A stretch of 64,000 nt of DNA from Candidatus Parcubacteria bacterium. Lineage in GTDB: Bacteria; Patescibacteriota; Minisyncoccia; UBA6257; JAGOQP01. Each line of letters starts with the position of its first letter. The stretch's first letter is position 1. Where the stretch lies: positions 2,105 to 66,104 of the forward strand of contig AP024682.1 in NCBI GenBank assembly GCA_025999395.1, written 5' to 3'. This document shows, in pieces, positions 40,190 to 57,269 of the stretch. The position numbers and the translations under genes were made by a program. The notes beneath the pieces were generated by a model that had not been told where the DNA came from, made no database searches, and worked only from the letters and a program-made list of their open reading frames with translations.

Positions 40190-40262
40190 AGCGGGAGACG
40201 GGATTTGAACCCGCGAATCTCCACCTTGGCAAGGTGGCGTGTTACCGCTACACCACTCCCGC
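40190..40262 (-). tRNA. tRNA-Gly (anticodon GCC), no encoded CCA
   Basis: GCGGGAGTGGTGTAGCGGTAACACGCCACCTTGCCAAGGTGGAGATTCGCGGGTTCAAATCCCGTCTCCCGC with discriminator U. Confidence 0.75.
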
Positions 40263-40328
40263 TTTTGATAAAAAATAATAACTTTTTTTCAAATTACTTT
40301 CAAACCTCTAACAAGTCCACCCGGAAGG

Positions 40329-40401
40329 AGTCGAACCTTCAACCATCTCCTTAAGAGGGAGCTGCTCTGCCAGTTGAGCTACGGGTGGAGACTTAAAAAA
40401 A
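40329..40401 (-). tRNA. tRNA-Lys (anticodon CTT), no encoded CCA
   Basis: CCACCCGTAGCTCAACTGGCAGAGCAGCTCCCTCTTAAGGAGATGGTTGAAGGTTCGACTCCTTCCGGGTGGA. Anticodon loop CTCTTAA. Confidence 0.65.
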
Positions 40402-49667: not shown

Positions 49668-49740
49668 AAAGAAAATTAAACTTACAAAATTAAGAATGTT
49701 TTGAAATAACTTTTAAGTAATAATTTGGGATGAAAAAATT

Positions 49741-51009
49741 AAAAATTGAATAGGTAGATTAGACGATCTCCTGAAGACGACGATAGACGTGATCTACAAA
49801 AGTAGAAATTGAATAGGTAGATTAGACCTCTTTTAGAGAAAATGGACGATTGGATCTACAAAAGTAGAAATTGAATAGGTAGATTAGACACAAAAATGTC
49901 AAGCCCCTACCTGTGGAATCTACAAAAGTAGAAATTGAATAGGTAGATTAGACACTACGTTCAGAGTTAATCCCAGAGTATCTACAAAAGTAGAAATTGA
50001 ATAGGTAGATTAGACAGTTTAAAATCCGGGGCTTGGGTATATATCTACAAAAGTAGAAATTGAATAGGTAGATTAGACTGTATAGAACATCAACACCACA
50101 ATATCTACAAAAGTAGAAATTGAATAGGTAGATTAGACTGGAAATGGTTTGCTTTATATTCAAATCTACAAAAGTAGAAATTGAATAGGTAGATTAGACT
50201 GTTAAAATTCTTAAAAAGTATCTATCGATCTACAAAAGTAGAAATTGAATAGGTAGATTAGACAAATAGTAAATACAGTTATAGAAAAAATCTACAAAAG
50301 TAGAAATTGAATAGGTAGATTAGACAATACATACCAACATTATGGAGCAAAATCTACAAAAGTAGAAATTGAATAGGTAGATTAGACTATCGCTTAGATC
50401 AAAGCATAAATTATCTACAAAAGTAGAAATTGAATAGGTAGATTAGACTAAGCATTAGCCCATACATTGAACAAAATCTACAAAAGTAGAAATTGAATAG
50501 GTAGATTAGACTAAGCATAGCATAACATTGAACAATATCTACAAAAGTAGAAATTGAATAGGTAGATTAGACTGAATTAGCAAGAATACAACCGATGGAT
50601 CTACAAAAGTAGAAATTGAATAGGTAGATTAGACATTGAAATGTCCCCGACCTTTATATTATCTACAAAAGTAGAAATTGAATAGGTAGATTAGACAAAT
50701 ATACATTCCTAATCCTGCCTTTATCTACAAAAGTAGAAATTGAATAGGTAGATTAGACACGAAGTAAAAAGAAATACCGATTCATCTACAAAAGTAGAAA
50801 TTGAATAGGTAGATTAGACTGTATCGCTAAATTCGCAACCCTATCTTATCTACAAAAGTAGAAATTGAATAGGTAGATTAGACATTGGAATAATTATGTG
50901 ATTAAAGTAAAATCTACAAAAGTAGAAATTGAATAGGTAGATTAGACTATTTATGCAATTCTAAACAGAATTAATCTACAAAAGTAGAAATTGAATAGGT
51001 AGATTAGAC
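49741..51009 (-). CRISPR. CRISPR array, type V-A (Cas12a) repeat: 20 full 36-bp repeats + 1 degenerate terminal repeat (49741-49764); 20 spacers of 24-28 nt
   Basis: Plus-strand repeat ATCTACAAAAGTAGAAATTGAATAGGTAGATTAGAC. crRNA sense (minus strand) GTCTAATCTACCTATTCAATTTCTACTTTTGTAGAT ends in the Cas12a handle AAUUUCUACU-UUU-GUAGAU. Full repeats start at 49792, 49854, 49918, 49980, 50043, 50103, 50164, 50228, 50290, 50352, 50413, 50476, 50537, 50599, 50661, 50723, 50784, 50848, 50912, 50974. Confidence 0.95.
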
Positions 51010-51220
51010 AGCGGAAATGGCTTAAAATCAATATAATTTTGGCCAAGCCAAAAATTAATAATTTGCAAAAACCTCATAAAATAAAGCCATTTCCGCCATA
51101 AAAATTCATAAAGACTGAGGTTTTGCAATTTTATGTACATTTTAAAATATAGTAATCTACCCACAACAACTTCTACCTTTGTTATTAATTAAACTAATGT
51201 AAAACTGTCAAAGAACTGGA
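51010..51220 (-). promoter_or_regulatory. CRISPR leader (AT-rich, ~210 bp between cas2 stop and first repeat) with nested inverted repeats
   Basis: 13-bp IR GCGGAAATGGCTT (51011-51023) / AAGCCATTTCCGC (51086-51098). IR TTGCAAAAACCTCA (51056-69) / TGAGGTTTTGCAA (51115-27). Palindrome TTGGCCAA. Inverted degenerate repeat copy at 51153-51183. Confidence 0.5.
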
Positions 51221-51502
51221 CTAACCAAAAACAACCACTTCCTTTTCTTCATTTTCTGAATAACCGTATCTTCTGATTTTCTTTTGGCATGACTCACACA
51301 AACTTAAAATAATCACACTATCAGATCCACCAAATTTCTTGCTATAATTTGATTCTATCTCAATTAAAATATTATTCAAGACTCTTTGACTATTTTTAAT
51401 CTCATAAACAGAATACTGGATTTTCCTACCAAACTTCTTTAAAAATTTAGAAAATTTATTTCTTTGCCTGTCGTCTTGAATATCGTAAGAAACTAAAATC
51501 AT
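51221..51502 (-). CDS. cas2: CRISPR-associated endoribonuclease Cas2
   Basis: 93 aa. MILVSYDIQDDRQRNKFSKFLKKFGRKIQYSVYE, the canonical Cas2 N-terminus (VSYDI...R..V...L...G.R.Q.SV.E). Confidence 0.85.
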   Translation of the reverse strand: MILVSYDIQDDRQRNKFSKFLKKFGRKIQYSVYEIKNSQRVLNNILIEIESNYSKKFGGSDSVIILSLCESCQKKIRRYGYSENEEKEVVVFG

Positions 51503-51521
51503 ATTCTCTTCAATAAAACTA

Positions 51522-52477
51522 CTAACGCGATACTTTAAAATAAGGAAAATTATACTTTTCGCTGTCCATTACAAAATGATAAAAATCTCTTATATATTTA
51601 TAAATTTCTTCTTTATTTTTCATTATTGTTTCTAAAAAAACCGAAGCGTATTTCGTAGATTTGCTGTAAAGCATATAAACTTTGCTATCTTTTGCTTTAA
51701 AATCTTTTTCATTAAAAATTTTTAAGTTAAAAATTTTTAGCACTTCTCGATCAACAATGCATCTAAACGGCTCAATAATATCGCAAGAAAGGGATTTCCT
51801 TTGAAAAAATAACTTGTGATAAAAACCCTTATAAGTATCGAAGCCAAAAAGATTCAGCAAAGCATCTATAAAATTAAAAAGTAAGGTATAGCCCATATCT
51901 AATAAAAAATTGACTGCGTCAGGCTTAACTCTGGGCATTCGTGCAAACCAACCAATTTCTTTAAAATAAGCAGAAAAAAATTCTTTTGAGAAATTTCCCT
52001 CAATTCCTCTTAAGGTCTCTAAATTTTCAGCTTGATTAATTAAATTTCTGATTTCTTGTTTTGTTCTACTAATTAATTTCCCTCTTGATTTAAGCAATCT
52101 AAGTTGATTCTCAATTTTATTTAAAACAAGACTTTTAGAAAATTTTAAATCAAAATCGTCTGAAAAAAAGTATTGTCTCATTTTCAATAAATAATTGCCA
52201 CATTTTTCGCGCCAATTGAGGCGTAACAACGGAAACTATTATCTAGCAAAAAGAAGGAGATACCATATTTTAAGCCTTTTTTAATTAACTCAGAGGTGAT
52301 AGAAATGTTACCAATAATAAAAACAGAAAATATTCGGTGACAAGATACTCTATTTTCTACTCGTTCATCTTTTTCAAAAACAATATTGTCGTTGTAAATT
52401 TTAATCTTATTTAAAACACCGCTTTCGGTCTTAATAAAAAGAATCTGCTTTTGTCTAAAATCCGGAAGAGTAATCAT
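51522..52477 (-). CDS. cas1: CRISPR-associated integrase Cas1, split into two frames (97 aa + 235 aa; shift near 52200-52215)
   Basis: N-terminal ORF MITLPDFRQKQILFI...GNISITSELIKKGLKYGISFFLLDNSFRCYASIG (Cas1 beta-sandwich domain). Second ORF ...NYLLKMRQYFFSDDFDLKFSKSLVLNKIENQLRLLKSRG...ARMPRVKPDAVNFLLDMGYTLLFN (Cas1 alpha-helical catalytic domain pattern). Combined ~330 aa. Confidence 0.75.
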
Positions 52478-53043
52478 TTTACCAATTTAAGGTTGAATAA
52501 ATAGAATTTTGACCACCTTGGGCAAGAATGGTTAATTAACTGGAGAGGATTAAAATTCCTTATGCGTTTAAGAATATCCTCAAATATGTTTTTATCCTTA
52601 TTAGAAGGAAGGGGTATAAAGTAATTTTTATTATCGCTCATAGATCTAATAATTATTTTTTTAACTTCATAACCCATTTCCAAAAGACAGAAATATTGAG
52701 CATAAAGCTGATATTTATAACCGTCATAAATGCATTTTACTTTCGTTTTTCTTTCAATTAGAGTTTTCTCTTCTTTGTCATAAATATCAATCTTGCCCAT
52801 TATTCTATACTTGTCGCTATAAACTTCTTTTCCAACAAGAAAACGATTGGAAGTAGAATAATTTTTTTCTTCAATGGATTGATGTTTTATTCTCCCTTTT
52901 CTTTGCGGTTCATCATGAAACAAATCATCAGAAAAATCTTCATACATCATATGAAGATATAAAGTTTTTGGACAATAAAGAAAATCGTTAATTTTAGAAA
53001 TTGGGATATAGGAGTACATTATCTTTGAACAAATTTGTCCCAC
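52474..53043 (-). CDS. cas4: CRISPR-associated Cas4 (PD-(D/E)xK RecB-like nuclease)
   Basis: 189 aa. N-terminal YCPKTLYL, motif II/III GKIDIYDKEEKTLIERKT (D...ExK), QxxxY motif YKYQLYAQYF. Only one C-terminal Cys (HSCPRW). Start overlaps the cas12a stop; stop overlaps the cas1 start by 4 nt. Confidence 0.7.
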   Translation of the reverse strand: MGQICSKIMYSYIPISKINDFLYCPKTLYLHMMYEDFSDDLFHDEPQRKGRIKHQSIEEKNYSTSNRFLVGKEVYSDKYRIMGKIDIYDKEEKTLIERKTKVKCIYDGYKYQLYAQYFCLLEMGYEVKKIIIRSMSDNKNYFIPLPSNKDKNIFEDILKRIRNFNPLQLINHSCPRWSKFYLFNLKLVK

Positions 53044-56000
53044 TCTTCCTTTGAAATGCTTAAATCCGGTTTATTAGGATTATTTTTGATTTTTTCTAAA
53101 ATAATTAATCCTTTTCTGGCAATGTTATAAGCGCCAACACCATCAGCATCAAATTTCTCCTCTGGCTTATATTCTTTTAATCTATCTTTAAATTCAGCCA
53201 AATTTTCAGAAGCAATTTCTTCTCTGGCGTTATCTTTCACGACTTTCCCATCTTTTTCTATACCAATTTCTCTCAAACCAAAAGTTGTGAAAAATGGTTT
53301 TACTGGCGAAGCAAAAAAGTCAATGCCATAATCAATTTTTTTAAGTTTCTTTTCCGTCTTATCAATTTCTACTGATAAAGAATAAGTATTTCTCACTTGC
53401 AAAACAATATTAAAGAGAAAAATAAATCTCTCGTAAAAGTTTTTTAATCTTCCATCAAACTCCTTTTTTTCGACTAATAATTTATCGTTTTCTGCTATCC
53501 TCTTTTTAAGATTAGAGAGGATGTCGTTACTTTGTGCCTCAAATCCGTATTTTTCCAATAAATCTCTAAACTCCTCGTTTAAATTAATCTTTTTATAACT
53601 CCAATAACTACTTTTTGATTCTTTCCATCTTATGACTCGAGGAACCTTTGTCCAAATAGTCCAATCCTTGCTAAGAGGTTTTTTCTTTTTCTCGGCAAAA
53701 TCAACTTGATTGTATTCAATAAAATAACTTTCTTCTGTATCATCCCAGCCAAATTTTTTTAATTTATTTATTAATTCTTTTATCTTCTCTTGCGAAGCAG
53801 AATTGCTAATATAAATATTTTTTCTAAAACCAGTTAAGGGATCGGTTTGAGAAGTGTATTCCGCGCTCGTGTAAAATAGAACTCCGGTTTGTTTGGCTTT
53901 CTCAATATCTTTAAAAGAAGTAAAGGGCGCGGCTAACTGATAACCGTTTAAAACACCACCCGGAGAAAAAACATCACGATTATCTTTAAAAATCAGATAA
54001 TTCAACTTATCTATCAATGCTTTTTCAAATTGTTGATAAACTGTTCTTTCAGAAATACCATTTCTAATTTGTTTAAATCTTCTACTTAAATCTTCTAAAA
54101 CAACAATCGCATTATGGTTTATAATCAAATCGCAAATCTTTCTTACTACATAAGAAATATATCCTTGTTTTAAATCTTTAATTTTAGCCACTGGTTCCCA
54201 AGATTGTCTTTCTAATTGTCGTTGCTTTTCTCTTTCAACAAGTTTGTCAAAATAATTAACATTATTTACCTTGTTTAAATTTATCTTGTTTAAGCTTCCA
54301 TAGTCTAAAATTTCTTGATTCTGGTTAATCACGCAATAATAAAGAAGGTTCTTCTCGCCTCGGTCAATACCGATAATATTGATTTTACCAAGATTATCTT
54401 TGATAAAATGATTTAATTTACTGGAAAAATTTTTAAACGAAGAAGATGGTTTATCAGCGTTTAGAGTAATAGGACAGTGAAATAAATATGTAGGTTTTAA
54501 ATATCTTTGATAATGATAAACAGGTTTATCTTCTCTCTTTGCCTGCTTTGCGCCATTTAATCTTTCTAGAATAACCGGCTTTCTCATTTCTTCATTCATT
54601 TCTAAAACATCTCTATAAAATATTTCTGCTTTCCCGTTTAATCTAATTAATGGATATTTTATTTCTTCTAAATTTTCCTTGCTAAAAATATGTTCCCAGT
54701 AAAGAGTGTGAATATTTTTCCTGCTATCTGGTTTTTTGTATTTATAAAAATCTTTATTAGAAACTTCAAATAAATAAAGATTGCCATCATTTAGTTGTTT
54801 TTCAATATAACTCGCCTTTATTTTATCAAAATTTATCTTGTACCCCTGAAGAGCAATATGATCGGTAAAATCTTTAAAGGTTTGATATTCTTCTGATGGA
54901 AGTAATTTTAAATCAAATTTTTTCCAATAAATAAGAGCGCATTTTCTAAAATAATTAATAATTTTAACCAAATCCTCTCTATTTACTTTTTCCCTTTTAT
55001 ATGTACCTTTTTCTTTTATCCTTTTTATTTCATCTGGCCAATGTTTATTTTTTTCTTCTAATTTAGTAAATCGTTTTACAGTATTGTCTGGCATTAATAC
55101 CAAATTAAAAATATCCTTTGCCGGATCAGCTATTTGCCAATAATTCATTTTTAAATAGAAATCCTCATTATCATTAGCTAAAATTTCATTTTTTAAATTA
55201 TTTTTTCTTTCCTTTTCTTTCTGGTTATCTTTTTCAGTAATTTGATAATCAAACAATTTAGAATTCTCTTTTCTCAAAACGCCAAGATAATATTTATTGT
55301 TTTTTATAAAAATCAACCCCAAATTATCTTTTTCTTTACTAACATCCCAACCATCTAAAAGACTGCGGCTTTCAAAATTTAATTTTATCTTATTCTCATC
55401 CGAAGGTTTTTTAGTTATAAAATTTCTGATTCCATTATAATATTTGTTAAATTCAAAATTATTAAAGTATTCATCAACTAGACGATAAAATTCAGTGCTT
55501 AAACCGCTAGGGACATCTTTTCTATCTTTATCTGATAAATTAAAATACCGCATCATTCGGTTAATGCGCAAAGCAGCATCGCAGTAATTTTTAATCGTTT
55601 TAATCTGCTCTTTCTCCGCTGAATAAAATTTAATTTTCTCGGCTTCTTTTTCTAATTTATCCGTATAACCCCAAAATATCTGAATAGGTTCTCCATTTTT
55701 ATCTTTTTTAATTTCGCCTTTTTCAACCTTATCTTTAAAAAGCGACTCAAATTCAAACCGCCAAATTTTAAGAAAATTCTCCCAGTTATTACTCTTTTCT
55801 TCTTTTTCTAATGGCGCTTCTGGATTTACTTCGTTTTTGTAAAATCTCGATTTAAAAATATCGCCTTCTAAACTTAAAATCGCATTTTTAAATTCGTCTA
55901 GAGAGGTAAATTTTTTAAGTTTTATTTTCTCTTCTGATTTAACGCCCGTAAGTTTCATTAAAAATTCTTCCGGATTGGAAAACCATTTATTAACAATTTC

Positions 56001-57269
56001 GTTTATAACATTCTTCTTTAAATAAATACTTTGATAATCATTTTCAAAAATACCACTGGTAAAATCCTCAATAAATTTTTTAGCGCCTTCAATTTCTTCT
56101 TTTTCATCGCCGTAAATTTTTATTTTATTTCTCTTTATAAACTCTTGGAATCTATCAATAAAAACCTCTTCTTCTGTTTTTTCATCTTTCGCTTCTATAA
56201 AAACTCTTTCCTTTTTAACTTCTCCAAGAATTTGTTTTTCTAAATTTAGAAAAAGCGGTAAATCTTTTTTATCTATTTTATTTTTATCGCGGTATTCTTT
56301 TGTTTTTCTGTTAATTTCGCCGATTATTTTGTTATATTTATCAATTCCTTCTTGAATTAAACAATCATAATAGTAGTTAATTTCAAAAACTTTCTCTTCT
56401 TCTTTAGTTAGCCCAACATCCTTAGCTTTGTTTTTATATTTTTCTTCAAAAAGAGATTTATTTTCTAAGAATCTTTCAAAATTGCTAACAATACGGGTAG
56501 CAACCGCTGTGCTCGTGCCGTCATCTTTATATAAATTTTCTCTTGTCTGCTGGAATTTAGATAGATAAGTGGTAAATTTGTCGAAACTTTCAAAAATATA
56601 AATTTTCTTTCCCGGATTTAATTCGTCATTTATAAATAAACTTGGATAGCCCTCTTTTCTAAATTCCTCATCTTTCTCTGCTGGAAACTTATATTTTAAG
56701 ATATTTATAATTCCGGCGGCGGTCAAAAAATTAACCCCTTTTTGTTTTAAATCAGCACTACTAAACTTTATCTTCTCTTTCTTACCACCCCTTTCAATTT
56801 CTTTATCTTGATATTCTTTCTTCCATTTCTCCGCTCTTTTATCAAATAATTCTCTTATTTCTTTATAAAGATTTTCTCTTTGACCCTCGATTTCTTTTTC
56901 AAGTTTAGAAATTTCGTCCCAATTCTTTTTATTTTTATCTTTAACCTCTTTGTTTTTCTTTTTTAGAGAGACAATTTTCTCTTTATTTGACTCAAAAATT
57001 TTCGCAAACTTTTCAAAATCAATATTCCTAATTCCATTTTCAACAGATAATGATTCTTTAATAAAATCTTGATGGAGTTTATCAAAATAAAATTTCGCTT
57101 GATTATAACTTTTATCTATATTTAAATCTTTCTTAAAAATGTCATTTTCCTCCAGCCACTTCTTCGTCTCGCCAACCGGTTTTAATTCAAACCTTAATGT
57201 CTTTTGTAATGAATATTTTTTAGTAAAAACCGACCAAATGCTTTGAGTTTGATTATTTTTATTCTCCAT
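53019..57269 (-). CDS. cas12a: Cas12a (Cpf1), type V-A CRISPR effector, 1416 aa
   Basis: N-terminus KYSLQKTLRFELKPVGETKKWLEEN (Cas12a WED-I signature KYSLSKTLRFELIPQGKT). PI/WED region GNLYLFEVSNKDF...NIHTLYWEHIFSKENL...LNGKAEIFYR. RuvC-I IGIDRGEKNLLYYCVI, RuvC-II NAIVVLEDLSRRFKQIR, RuvC-III FDADGVGAYNIARKGL. Confidence 0.92.
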   Translation of the reverse strand: MENKNNQTQSIWSVFTKKYSLQKTLRFELKPVGETKKWLEENDIFKKDLNIDKSYNQAKFYFDKLHQDFIKESLSVENGIRNIDFEKFAKIFESNKEKIVSLKKKNKEVKDKNKKNWDEISKLEKEIEGQRENLYKEIRELFDKRAEKWKKEYQDKEIERGGKKEKIKFSSADLKQKGVNFLTAAGIINILKYKFPAEKDEEFRKEGYPSLFINDELNPGKKIYIFESFDKFTTYLSKFQQTRENLYKDDGTSTAVATRIVSNFERFLENKSLFEEKYKNKAKDVGLTKEEEKVFEINYYYDCLIQEGIDKYNKIIGEINRKTKEYRDKNKIDKKDLPLFLNLEKQILGEVKKERVFIEAKDEKTEEEVFIDRFQEFIKRNKIKIYGDEKEEIEGAKKFIEDFTSGIFENDYQSIYLKKNVINEIVNKWFSNPEEFLMKLTGVKSEEKIKLKKFTSLDEFKNAILSLEGDIFKSRFYKNEVNPEAPLEKEEKSNNWENFLKIWRFEFESLFKDKVEKGEIKKDKNGEPIQIFWGYTDKLEKEAEKIKFYSAEKEQIKTIKNYCDAALRINRMMRYFNLSDKDRKDVPSGLSTEFYRLVDEYFNNFEFNKYYNGIRNFITKKPSDENKIKLNFESRSLLDGWDVSKEKDNLGLIFIKNNKYYLGVLRKENSKLFDYQITEKDNQKEKERKNNLKNEILANDNEDFYLKMNYWQIADPAKDIFNLVLMPDNTVKRFTKLEEKNKHWPDEIKRIKEKGTYKREKVNREDLVKIINYFRKCALIYWKKFDLKLLPSEEYQTFKDFTDHIALQGYKINFDKIKASYIEKQLNDGNLYLFEVSNKDFYKYKKPDSRKNIHTLYWEHIFSKENLEEIKYPLIRLNGKAEIFYRDVLEMNEEMRKPVILERLNGAKQAKREDKPVYHYQRYLKPTYLFHCPITLNADKPSSSFKNFSSKLNHFIKDNLGKINIIGIDRGEKNLLYYCVINQNQEILDYGSLNKINLNKVNNVNYFDKLVEREKQRQLERQSWEPVAKIKDLKQGYISYVVRKICDLIINHNAIVVLEDLSRRFKQIRNGISERTVYQQFEKALIDKLNYLIFKDNRDVFSPGGVLNGYQLAAPFTSFKDIEKAKQTGVLFYTSAEYTSQTDPLTGFRKNIYISNSASQEKIKELINKLKKFGWDDTEESYFIEYNQVDFAEKKKKPLSKDWTIWTKVPRVIRWKESKSSYWSYKKINLNEEFRDLLEKYGFEAQSNDILSNLKKRIAENDKLLVEKKEFDGRLKNFYERFIFLFNIVLQVRNTYSLSVEIDKTEKKLKKIDYGIDFFASPVKPFFTTFGLREIGIEKDGKVVKDNAREEIASENLAEFKDRLKEYKPEEKFDADGVGAYNIARKGLIILEKIKNNPNKPDLSISKEEWDKFVQR

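Follow-up and report, generated by a model that had tools for sequence, protein, structure and literature searches.

Type V-A CRISPR-Cas loci, such as those of Francisella novicida, Acidaminococcus and Lachnospiraceae, present the gene order cas12a-cas4-cas1-cas2-leader-array, with 36-nt repeats that end in AAUUUCUACU-UUU-GUAGAU and form a 5-bp hairpin, spacers of 24–28 nt and a degenerate terminal repeat. We found the same organization on the minus strand of a 64,000-nt stretch of DNA (hereafter the window, meaning the whole stretch that was analysed). In contrast with those type V-A loci, this one belongs to an uncultivated bacterium detected in hot-spring metagenomes, and both cas1 and cas4 are frameshifted in the window; in addition, the effector is longer (1416 aa) than the Cas12a proteins of solved structure (about 1200–1370 aa). 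Within the array of this locus, two neighbouring spacers are variants of one another, and their origin is the main subject of this work.

A canonical type V-A locus

The locus comprises the following features, listed from the effector gene to the end of the array:

53019..57269, minus strand: cas12a, coding for a 1416-aa effector (Pfam RuvC_1, 3.5e-67; REC1, 4.4e-20; NUC, 1.4e-14)
52474..53043, minus strand: cas4 (Pfam Cas_Cas4)
51522..52477, minus strand: cas1, present as two ORFs, 52184-52477 (97 aa) and 51522-52229 (235 aa)
51221..51502, minus strand: cas2 (Pfam CRISPR_Cas2, 6e-17)
51010..51220, minus strand: leader, 211 nt between cas2 and the first repeat
49729..51009, minus strand: CRISPR array, in which 20 perfect 36-nt repeats alternate with 20 spacers and a degenerate repeat closes the leader-distal end
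49765..49791, minus strand: oldest spacer, at the array terminus, in which the window alone has an additional A (49784)
49729-49764, minus strand: degenerate terminal repeat, matching the repeat at 29 of 36 positions

The single effector has a REC lobe, a split RuvC and a Nuc domain, and its similarity to the Cas12a chains in the PDB is very high (phmmer E-values from 1e-84 to 6e-132, including 6e-132 for ReChb and 1.8e-117 for FnCas12a). The genes cas4, cas1 and cas2 lie between this effector and the array. In every defining feature that could be tested, the locus is therefore a canonical type V-A (Cas12a) system. The window Cas12a (53019-57269), coming from a hot-spring bacterium, is possibly a thermotolerant orthologue. 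In two related contigs (L004 at ~4608 and L008 at ~1416, corresponding to window positions 56894 and 55542), single-base changes in the length of A/T runs break cas12a into two ORFs, which could reflect either homopolymer errors or a real on/off variation of the effector.

The 20 copies of the repeat are all perfect and read ATCTACAAAAGTAGAAATTGAATAGGTAGATTAGAC on the plus strand and GTCTAATCTACCTATTCAATTTCTACTTTTGTAGAT in crRNA sense (minus strand). The 3' end of the repeat carries the crRNA handle (AAUUUCUACU...GUAGAU), which folds into a 5-bp stem (UCUAC/GUAGA) with a UUUU loop (−4.8 kcal/mol), namely the canonical Cas12a crRNA handle, and the spacer follows 3' of it. Spacer lengths range from 24 to 28 nt (n=20) and the overall A+T content of the 20 spacers is 68%. 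Since the cas genes and then the leader are located upstream on the minus strand, the array is read from 51009 down to 49729, which places the degenerate repeat at the leader-distal end, where a preliminary description of this DNA had situated an old array terminus. This repeat is indeed present: over 49729-49764 it keeps the first 22 nt of the repeat intact (49743-49764), and folding indicates that the crRNA hairpin has been lost. At the other end of the array, the leader contains a perfect 13-nt inverted repeat (51011-51023 and 51084-51096; GCGGAAATGGCTT and AAGCCATTTCCGC), one base off the first repeat. The two arms are 60 nt apart, with a smaller GC hairpin (51037-51053) between them. This inverted repeat is conserved in a related contig, L001, whose leader has one base different. 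Two tRNA genes are encoded elsewhere in the window, also on the minus strand (40190-40262 and 40316-40388; Rfam tRNA, 66 and 64 bits).

The adaptation genes of the window carry two indels that are missing from all the related contigs covering these sites (9/9). The first one, an additional G at 52513, alters the C-terminus of Cas4 from ...CPRCQNSIYSTLNW in the relatives to ...CPRWSKFYLFNLKLVK in the window, so that the C-terminal ...CPRC... becomes ...CPRW... and the ORF is lengthened. The second one, a 1-nt deletion at ~52201, splits cas1 and divides the Pfam Cas_Cas1 profile between its two ORFs (positions 9–75 in one and 76–278 in the other), whereas the relatives carry a whole Cas1 of 318 aa and an intact cas4. 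These frameshifts are either assembly indel errors or real, in which case this strain would have lost a working adaptation module and its array would be frozen.

Two near-identical neighbouring spacers

The preliminary description had pointed out that two adjacent spacers, which it numbered 12 and 13, were near-identical. Read from the leader, they correspond to the following positions (sequences in crRNA sense):

50512..50536, minus strand: newer spacer (number 13), 8th from the leader, 25 nt, ATTGTTCAATGTTATGCTATGCTTA
50449..50475, minus strand: older spacer (number 12), 9th from the leader, 27 nt, TTTGTTCAATGTATGGGCTAATGCTTA

Their best global alignment scores 16.5: 23 positions are identical, 1 is mismatched and 3 gaps are opened, which together take up 4 columns. 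The second-ranking pair among the 190 possible ones scores 8.5. This likeness stood far above all the controls. With shuffled spacers (300 sets), scores peaked at 12.5 (mean of the maxima 7.0, sd 1.4), and shuffling of the pair itself yielded z = 6.1. A further control used real sequence: 1000 sets, each of 20 segments taken without overlap from AT-rich viral contigs, peaked at 14.0 and so fell short of 16.5. Low-complexity composition, which the preliminary description had named, together with the lack of a shared target, as what would undo its claim, is thus excluded as the cause of the resemblance.

The differences between the two spacers are unevenly distributed. Counted in crRNA sense, position 1 is mismatched and positions 2–12 agree, after which the register is lost through indels (+1, −2 and −1, net 2 nt), in such a way that no reading frame stays aligned across both halves. 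Both spacers begin at a homologous nucleotide adjoining the repeat and, despite the net 2-nt difference in length, both finish at the same homologous nucleotide (...TGCTTA). Cas12a recognizes its targets through a PAM-proximal seed, and cleavage needs roughly 15 or more contiguous matched bases. Judging from the position of the indels, we infer that neither crRNA should support Cas12a cleavage of the target of the other; with no cross-cleavage predicted, the newer spacer would not be redundant and would add an immunity that the older one cannot give.

Variant spacers in sister arrays

Ten related contigs were retrieved through exact matches to the Cas2 protein, and eight of them are 99.5–99.99% identical to the window; the source run of one near-identical contig (DRR290133, HiFi) consists of hot-spring reads according to a preprint. 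Besides that run, the strain is represented in ERZ781397, SRR27730028/32/33, SRR32929653, SRR30574052, SRR15510187 and the sample behind GCA_026419535.1. Exact-protein look-ups with Cas2 and with the gene downstream of the array gave only two contigs spanning an array, L001 (NCBI MAG GCA_026419535.1) and L003 (ENA ERZ781397). Outside the array, they are 98.4–99.8% identical to the window (99.2% and 98.6% for L001). In several Logan contigs of the same strain (L002, L005-L007, L148-L156), the terminal spacer and the degenerate repeat follow directly on the leader and a single repeat, most likely owing to k-mer assembly collapse rather than to array-less strains. The remaining Cas2-matched Logan contigs stop at the latest within the first repeat.

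None of the 16 spacers nearest the leader in the window (50016-51009), the pair included, occurs in L001 or L003; spacers thus turn over quickly compared with the divergence of the genomes. The oldest part of the array could be compared with that of the two sister arrays (window 49765-49979 versus L001 10494-11850 and L003 1548-2460). One spacer, TCCACAGGTAGGGGCTTGACATTTTTGT, is common to the three of them and identical at 28 of 28 positions. The terminal spacer is also the same in the three, except for the additional A of the window, which reads CACGTCTATCG... where all 6 related contigs reaching this spacer have CACGTCTTCG.... Being leader-proximal to these shared spacers and missing from both sister arrays, the pair is young. 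Two further spacers of the window have variant counterparts in the sister arrays:

49954..49979, minus strand: spacer ACTCTGGGATTAACTCTGAACGTAGT, third allele of a family whose other two members are both found in L001 and L003
49828..49853, minus strand: spacer CCAATCGTCCATTTTCTCTAAAAGAG, with 2 substitutions relative to spacer CCAAGCGTCCCTTTTCTCTAAAAGAG of L001 and L003

CCAATCGTCCATTTTCTCTAAAAGAG in the window and CCAAGCGTCCCTTTTCTCTAAAAGAG in the sister arrays are located on opposite sides of the shared TCCACAGG spacer. This two-allele spacer, CCAA(T/G)CGTCC(A/C)TTTT... (alleles CCAAGCG... and CCAATCG...), has a different array position in the window and in the sister arrays. In the case of the three-allele family, L001 and L003 each hold ACTCTCCGTTTAACTCTGAAGAAGAT and ATTGTCCGTTTAACTCCGAAAAAGATG, one spacer apart, and the window has ACTCTGGGATTAACTCTGAACGTAGT. 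The members of this family (starting with ACTCTCCG..., ATTGTCCG... and ACTCTGGG...) share the same 5' register and have unequal 3' ends, and they differ by substitutions only, with no indels. Two forward frames are open in this family, which would agree with a coding target. The sequences themselves show that each variant pair contains at least one difference within crRNA positions 1–8 (the seed).

These variant families in sister arrays imply either independent re-acquisition or array recombination. The existence of further families in L001 and L003 indicates that variant spacers of one protospacer recur in this lineage and that the pair is no one-off. In arrays whose genomes are only ~1% apart, a small number of protospacers have been sampled repeatedly, in an unchanged register but from different alleles; there are three such families, one of which comprises three alleles, and the re-sampled spacers sit next to or near the older versions. 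A rough count of ~44 distinct spacers gives ~900 pairs, among which four or five are coincident; under the assumption that all spacers hit one 40-kb phage with ~1000 TTTV sites (assumed numbers), ~1 coincident pair would be expected. This excess is mild evidence in favour of hot spots, a small invader or selection.

Origin of the pair

We favour the interpretation, with a probability of about 0.5, that the two spacers are separate acquisitions made at one PAM-defined site from two variants of one mobile element or phage. The Cas4-Cas1-Cas2 module would have taken both consecutively at the same putative PAM site from diverged copies, adding the older spacer (50449-50475) at the leader end before the newer one (50512-50536). 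A homologous first base in both spacers is what double use of a single PAM would produce. Most likely, the source was a non-coding stretch shared by two variants of the same mobile element or phage; a non-coding target is suggested by the indels, whose net 2 nt break the alignment of the reading frames. One possible form of this scenario would be the appearance of an escape variant of the invader followed by re-acquisition of the site.

Two observations fit this interpretation less well. The shared end (...TGCTTA) would be automatic under a duplication followed by internal indels, while independent trimming would produce it only about one quarter of the time, given that spacer lengths spread over 24–28 nt. 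Moreover, no known mechanism favours the re-sampling of one site, since priming was not detected when E. coli carrying type V-A or V-B systems was examined for it (PMC9419969). The same study found that Cas4 is required for PAM selection and that spacer lengths are broadly distributed (PMC9419969). A priming-like, target-directed route operating in natural Cas12a systems, or a very strong hot spot, by which escaped sites would be re-acquired, seems rather unlikely to us.

The preliminary description had proposed a BLASTn search of the spacers for two related protospacer alleles carrying a TTTV PAM. No protospacer was found for the pair or for six other spacers in IMG/VR, JGI metagenomes, GTDB genomes, GenBank phages and PLSDB plasmids, and these phage, plasmid and metagenome collections yielded no shared target, no paired alleles and no TTTV PAM. 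A degenerate pattern covering both spacers with 20 specified bases (TTGTTCAATGN{3,6}GCTAN{0,1}TGCTTA) had 0 matches in IMG/VR and 17 elsewhere (13 metagenome and 4 genome loci). We rejected these 17 loci as targets: their interior bases misfit, they have no TTTV PAM, and their number is about that expected by chance for 20 bases. The nearest thing to a target was located in contig L017 (ERZ1034318 NODE_186, 38 kb), where positions 907-931 (TTGTTCAATGATATTGCTATGCTTA) match 23 of the 25 bases of the newer spacer. This match is intergenic and lies upstream of a phage-like 240-aa HTH ORF with tandem peptide repeats. It was likewise discarded as due to chance, because 20 of the matched bases are forced by the pattern and the bases upstream are TGAA, no T-rich PAM.

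Other searches were also negative. Patterns for six other spacers or spacer families had 0 matches each in IMG/VR. The PAM-plus-seed pattern TTTNNTTGTTCAATGT occurred there at no fewer than 120 loci (at least 120) and, among the matches listed, none had a fitting distal part, the best one scoring 4 out of a possible 13–15. The whole array compared by blastn with GenBank phages and PLSDB plasmids gave sub-significant matches only and no convincing spacer match. We found no self-targets in the window and related loci, and no Rfam match in the pair region that would fit the idea of a structured-RNA target. The preliminary description had read the pair as variants of one invader and as the signature of an arms race. 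Separate acquisition from diverged versions of a protospacer is indeed the best-supported part of that claim; the arms race can at most be inferred, as no protospacer, PAM or pair of alleles turned up in any collection and imperfect repeats carried by one element would look no different.

Such repeats are the basis of a possible alternative, which we regard as tentative: a short non-coding repeat (replication-origin iterons, terminal inverted repeats or direct terminal repeats, for example) might have been present twice, in imperfect copies, in one invader genome, both copies being acquired back to back in one encounter. Differences consisting mainly of indels, with a net change of 2 nt, are more typical of non-coding repeats than of allelic coding variation, and the adjacency of the two spacers would fit a single adaptation episode (19 of the 190 pairs are adjacent, hence a probability of 0.1 by chance). 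However, the other variant families are spread over genomes and array positions, which is a better fit to allelic variation of the invader, and the searches revealed no repeat-bearing target.

It is quite unlikely that recombination or slippage between repeats doubled a spacer-repeat unit whose copies later diverged by mutation. Such a duplication would explain that both spacer ends coincide and that the differences are internal indels. A similar indel bias is observed between the window and L002, which show 0 substitutions and 3 indels in 13.5 kb, all of them within 49784-52513, these being 1-nt indels private to the window within the locus. Nevertheless, duplication needs 4–5 events in 27 nt whereas the 720 nt of repeats have none. 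The number of in-array mutations expected between two 27-nt copies is about 0.35–0.4, to be compared with the 4–5 (at least 4) observed, and the Poisson probability of 4 or more events with ~0.35 expected is about 5e-4. Furthermore, the spacer shared with the sister arrays has remained identical (28/28) in a genome that is ~1% diverged, while the pair belongs to the young, strain-specific part of the array. The two copies are not identical, and they are more diverged than neighbouring neutral sequence. An origin by mutation only thus fits poorly with the ~1% background divergence, the unchanged shared spacer and the invariant repeats.

An artefact of assembly or sequencing, from a noisy long-read consensus or a chimeric array, is a very unlikely source of the second copy. 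The window-private indels at 52513, 52201 and 49784, missing from all the relatives that span them, could be residual errors, but ~3 errors in 21 kb predict only ~0.007 in the 52 nt of the pair, the 20 repeats are all perfect, and a whole extra repeat-spacer unit would have to be created. Finally, chance resemblance between two AT-rich spacers is refuted, with 0 of 300 shuffled and 0 of 1000 real-sequence sets reaching the score of the pair.

If its targets are found, the pair would become a dated two-step record, with the old and then the new allele of one invader site, in the Cas12a system of an uncultivated hot-spring bacterium. Combined with the families of the sister arrays, it could reveal whether escaped sites are re-sampled by type V-A systems beyond the frequency expected from naive adaptation.

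As a variant spacer pair, it is a known kind of pattern, ordinary in a canonical array, and it involves no new mechanism. Repeated or independent acquisition of protospacers, acquisition hot spots and the clustering of spacers with few mismatches (as practised, for example, in PMC4814470) are known in natural arrays. The window resembles the repeated protospacer acquisition seen in natural populations in that homologous spacers share their register, both inside a single array and between sister arrays, and differs from it in that the members of its adjacent pair are distinguished by indels, not by substitutions. It also recalls the primed adaptation of types I and II, with a new spacer against an already recorded element inserted directly after the old one. 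However, priming, which depends on the effector and shows strand bias, yields spacers near, not at, the old protospacer, whereas the two spacers of the window share their putative site.
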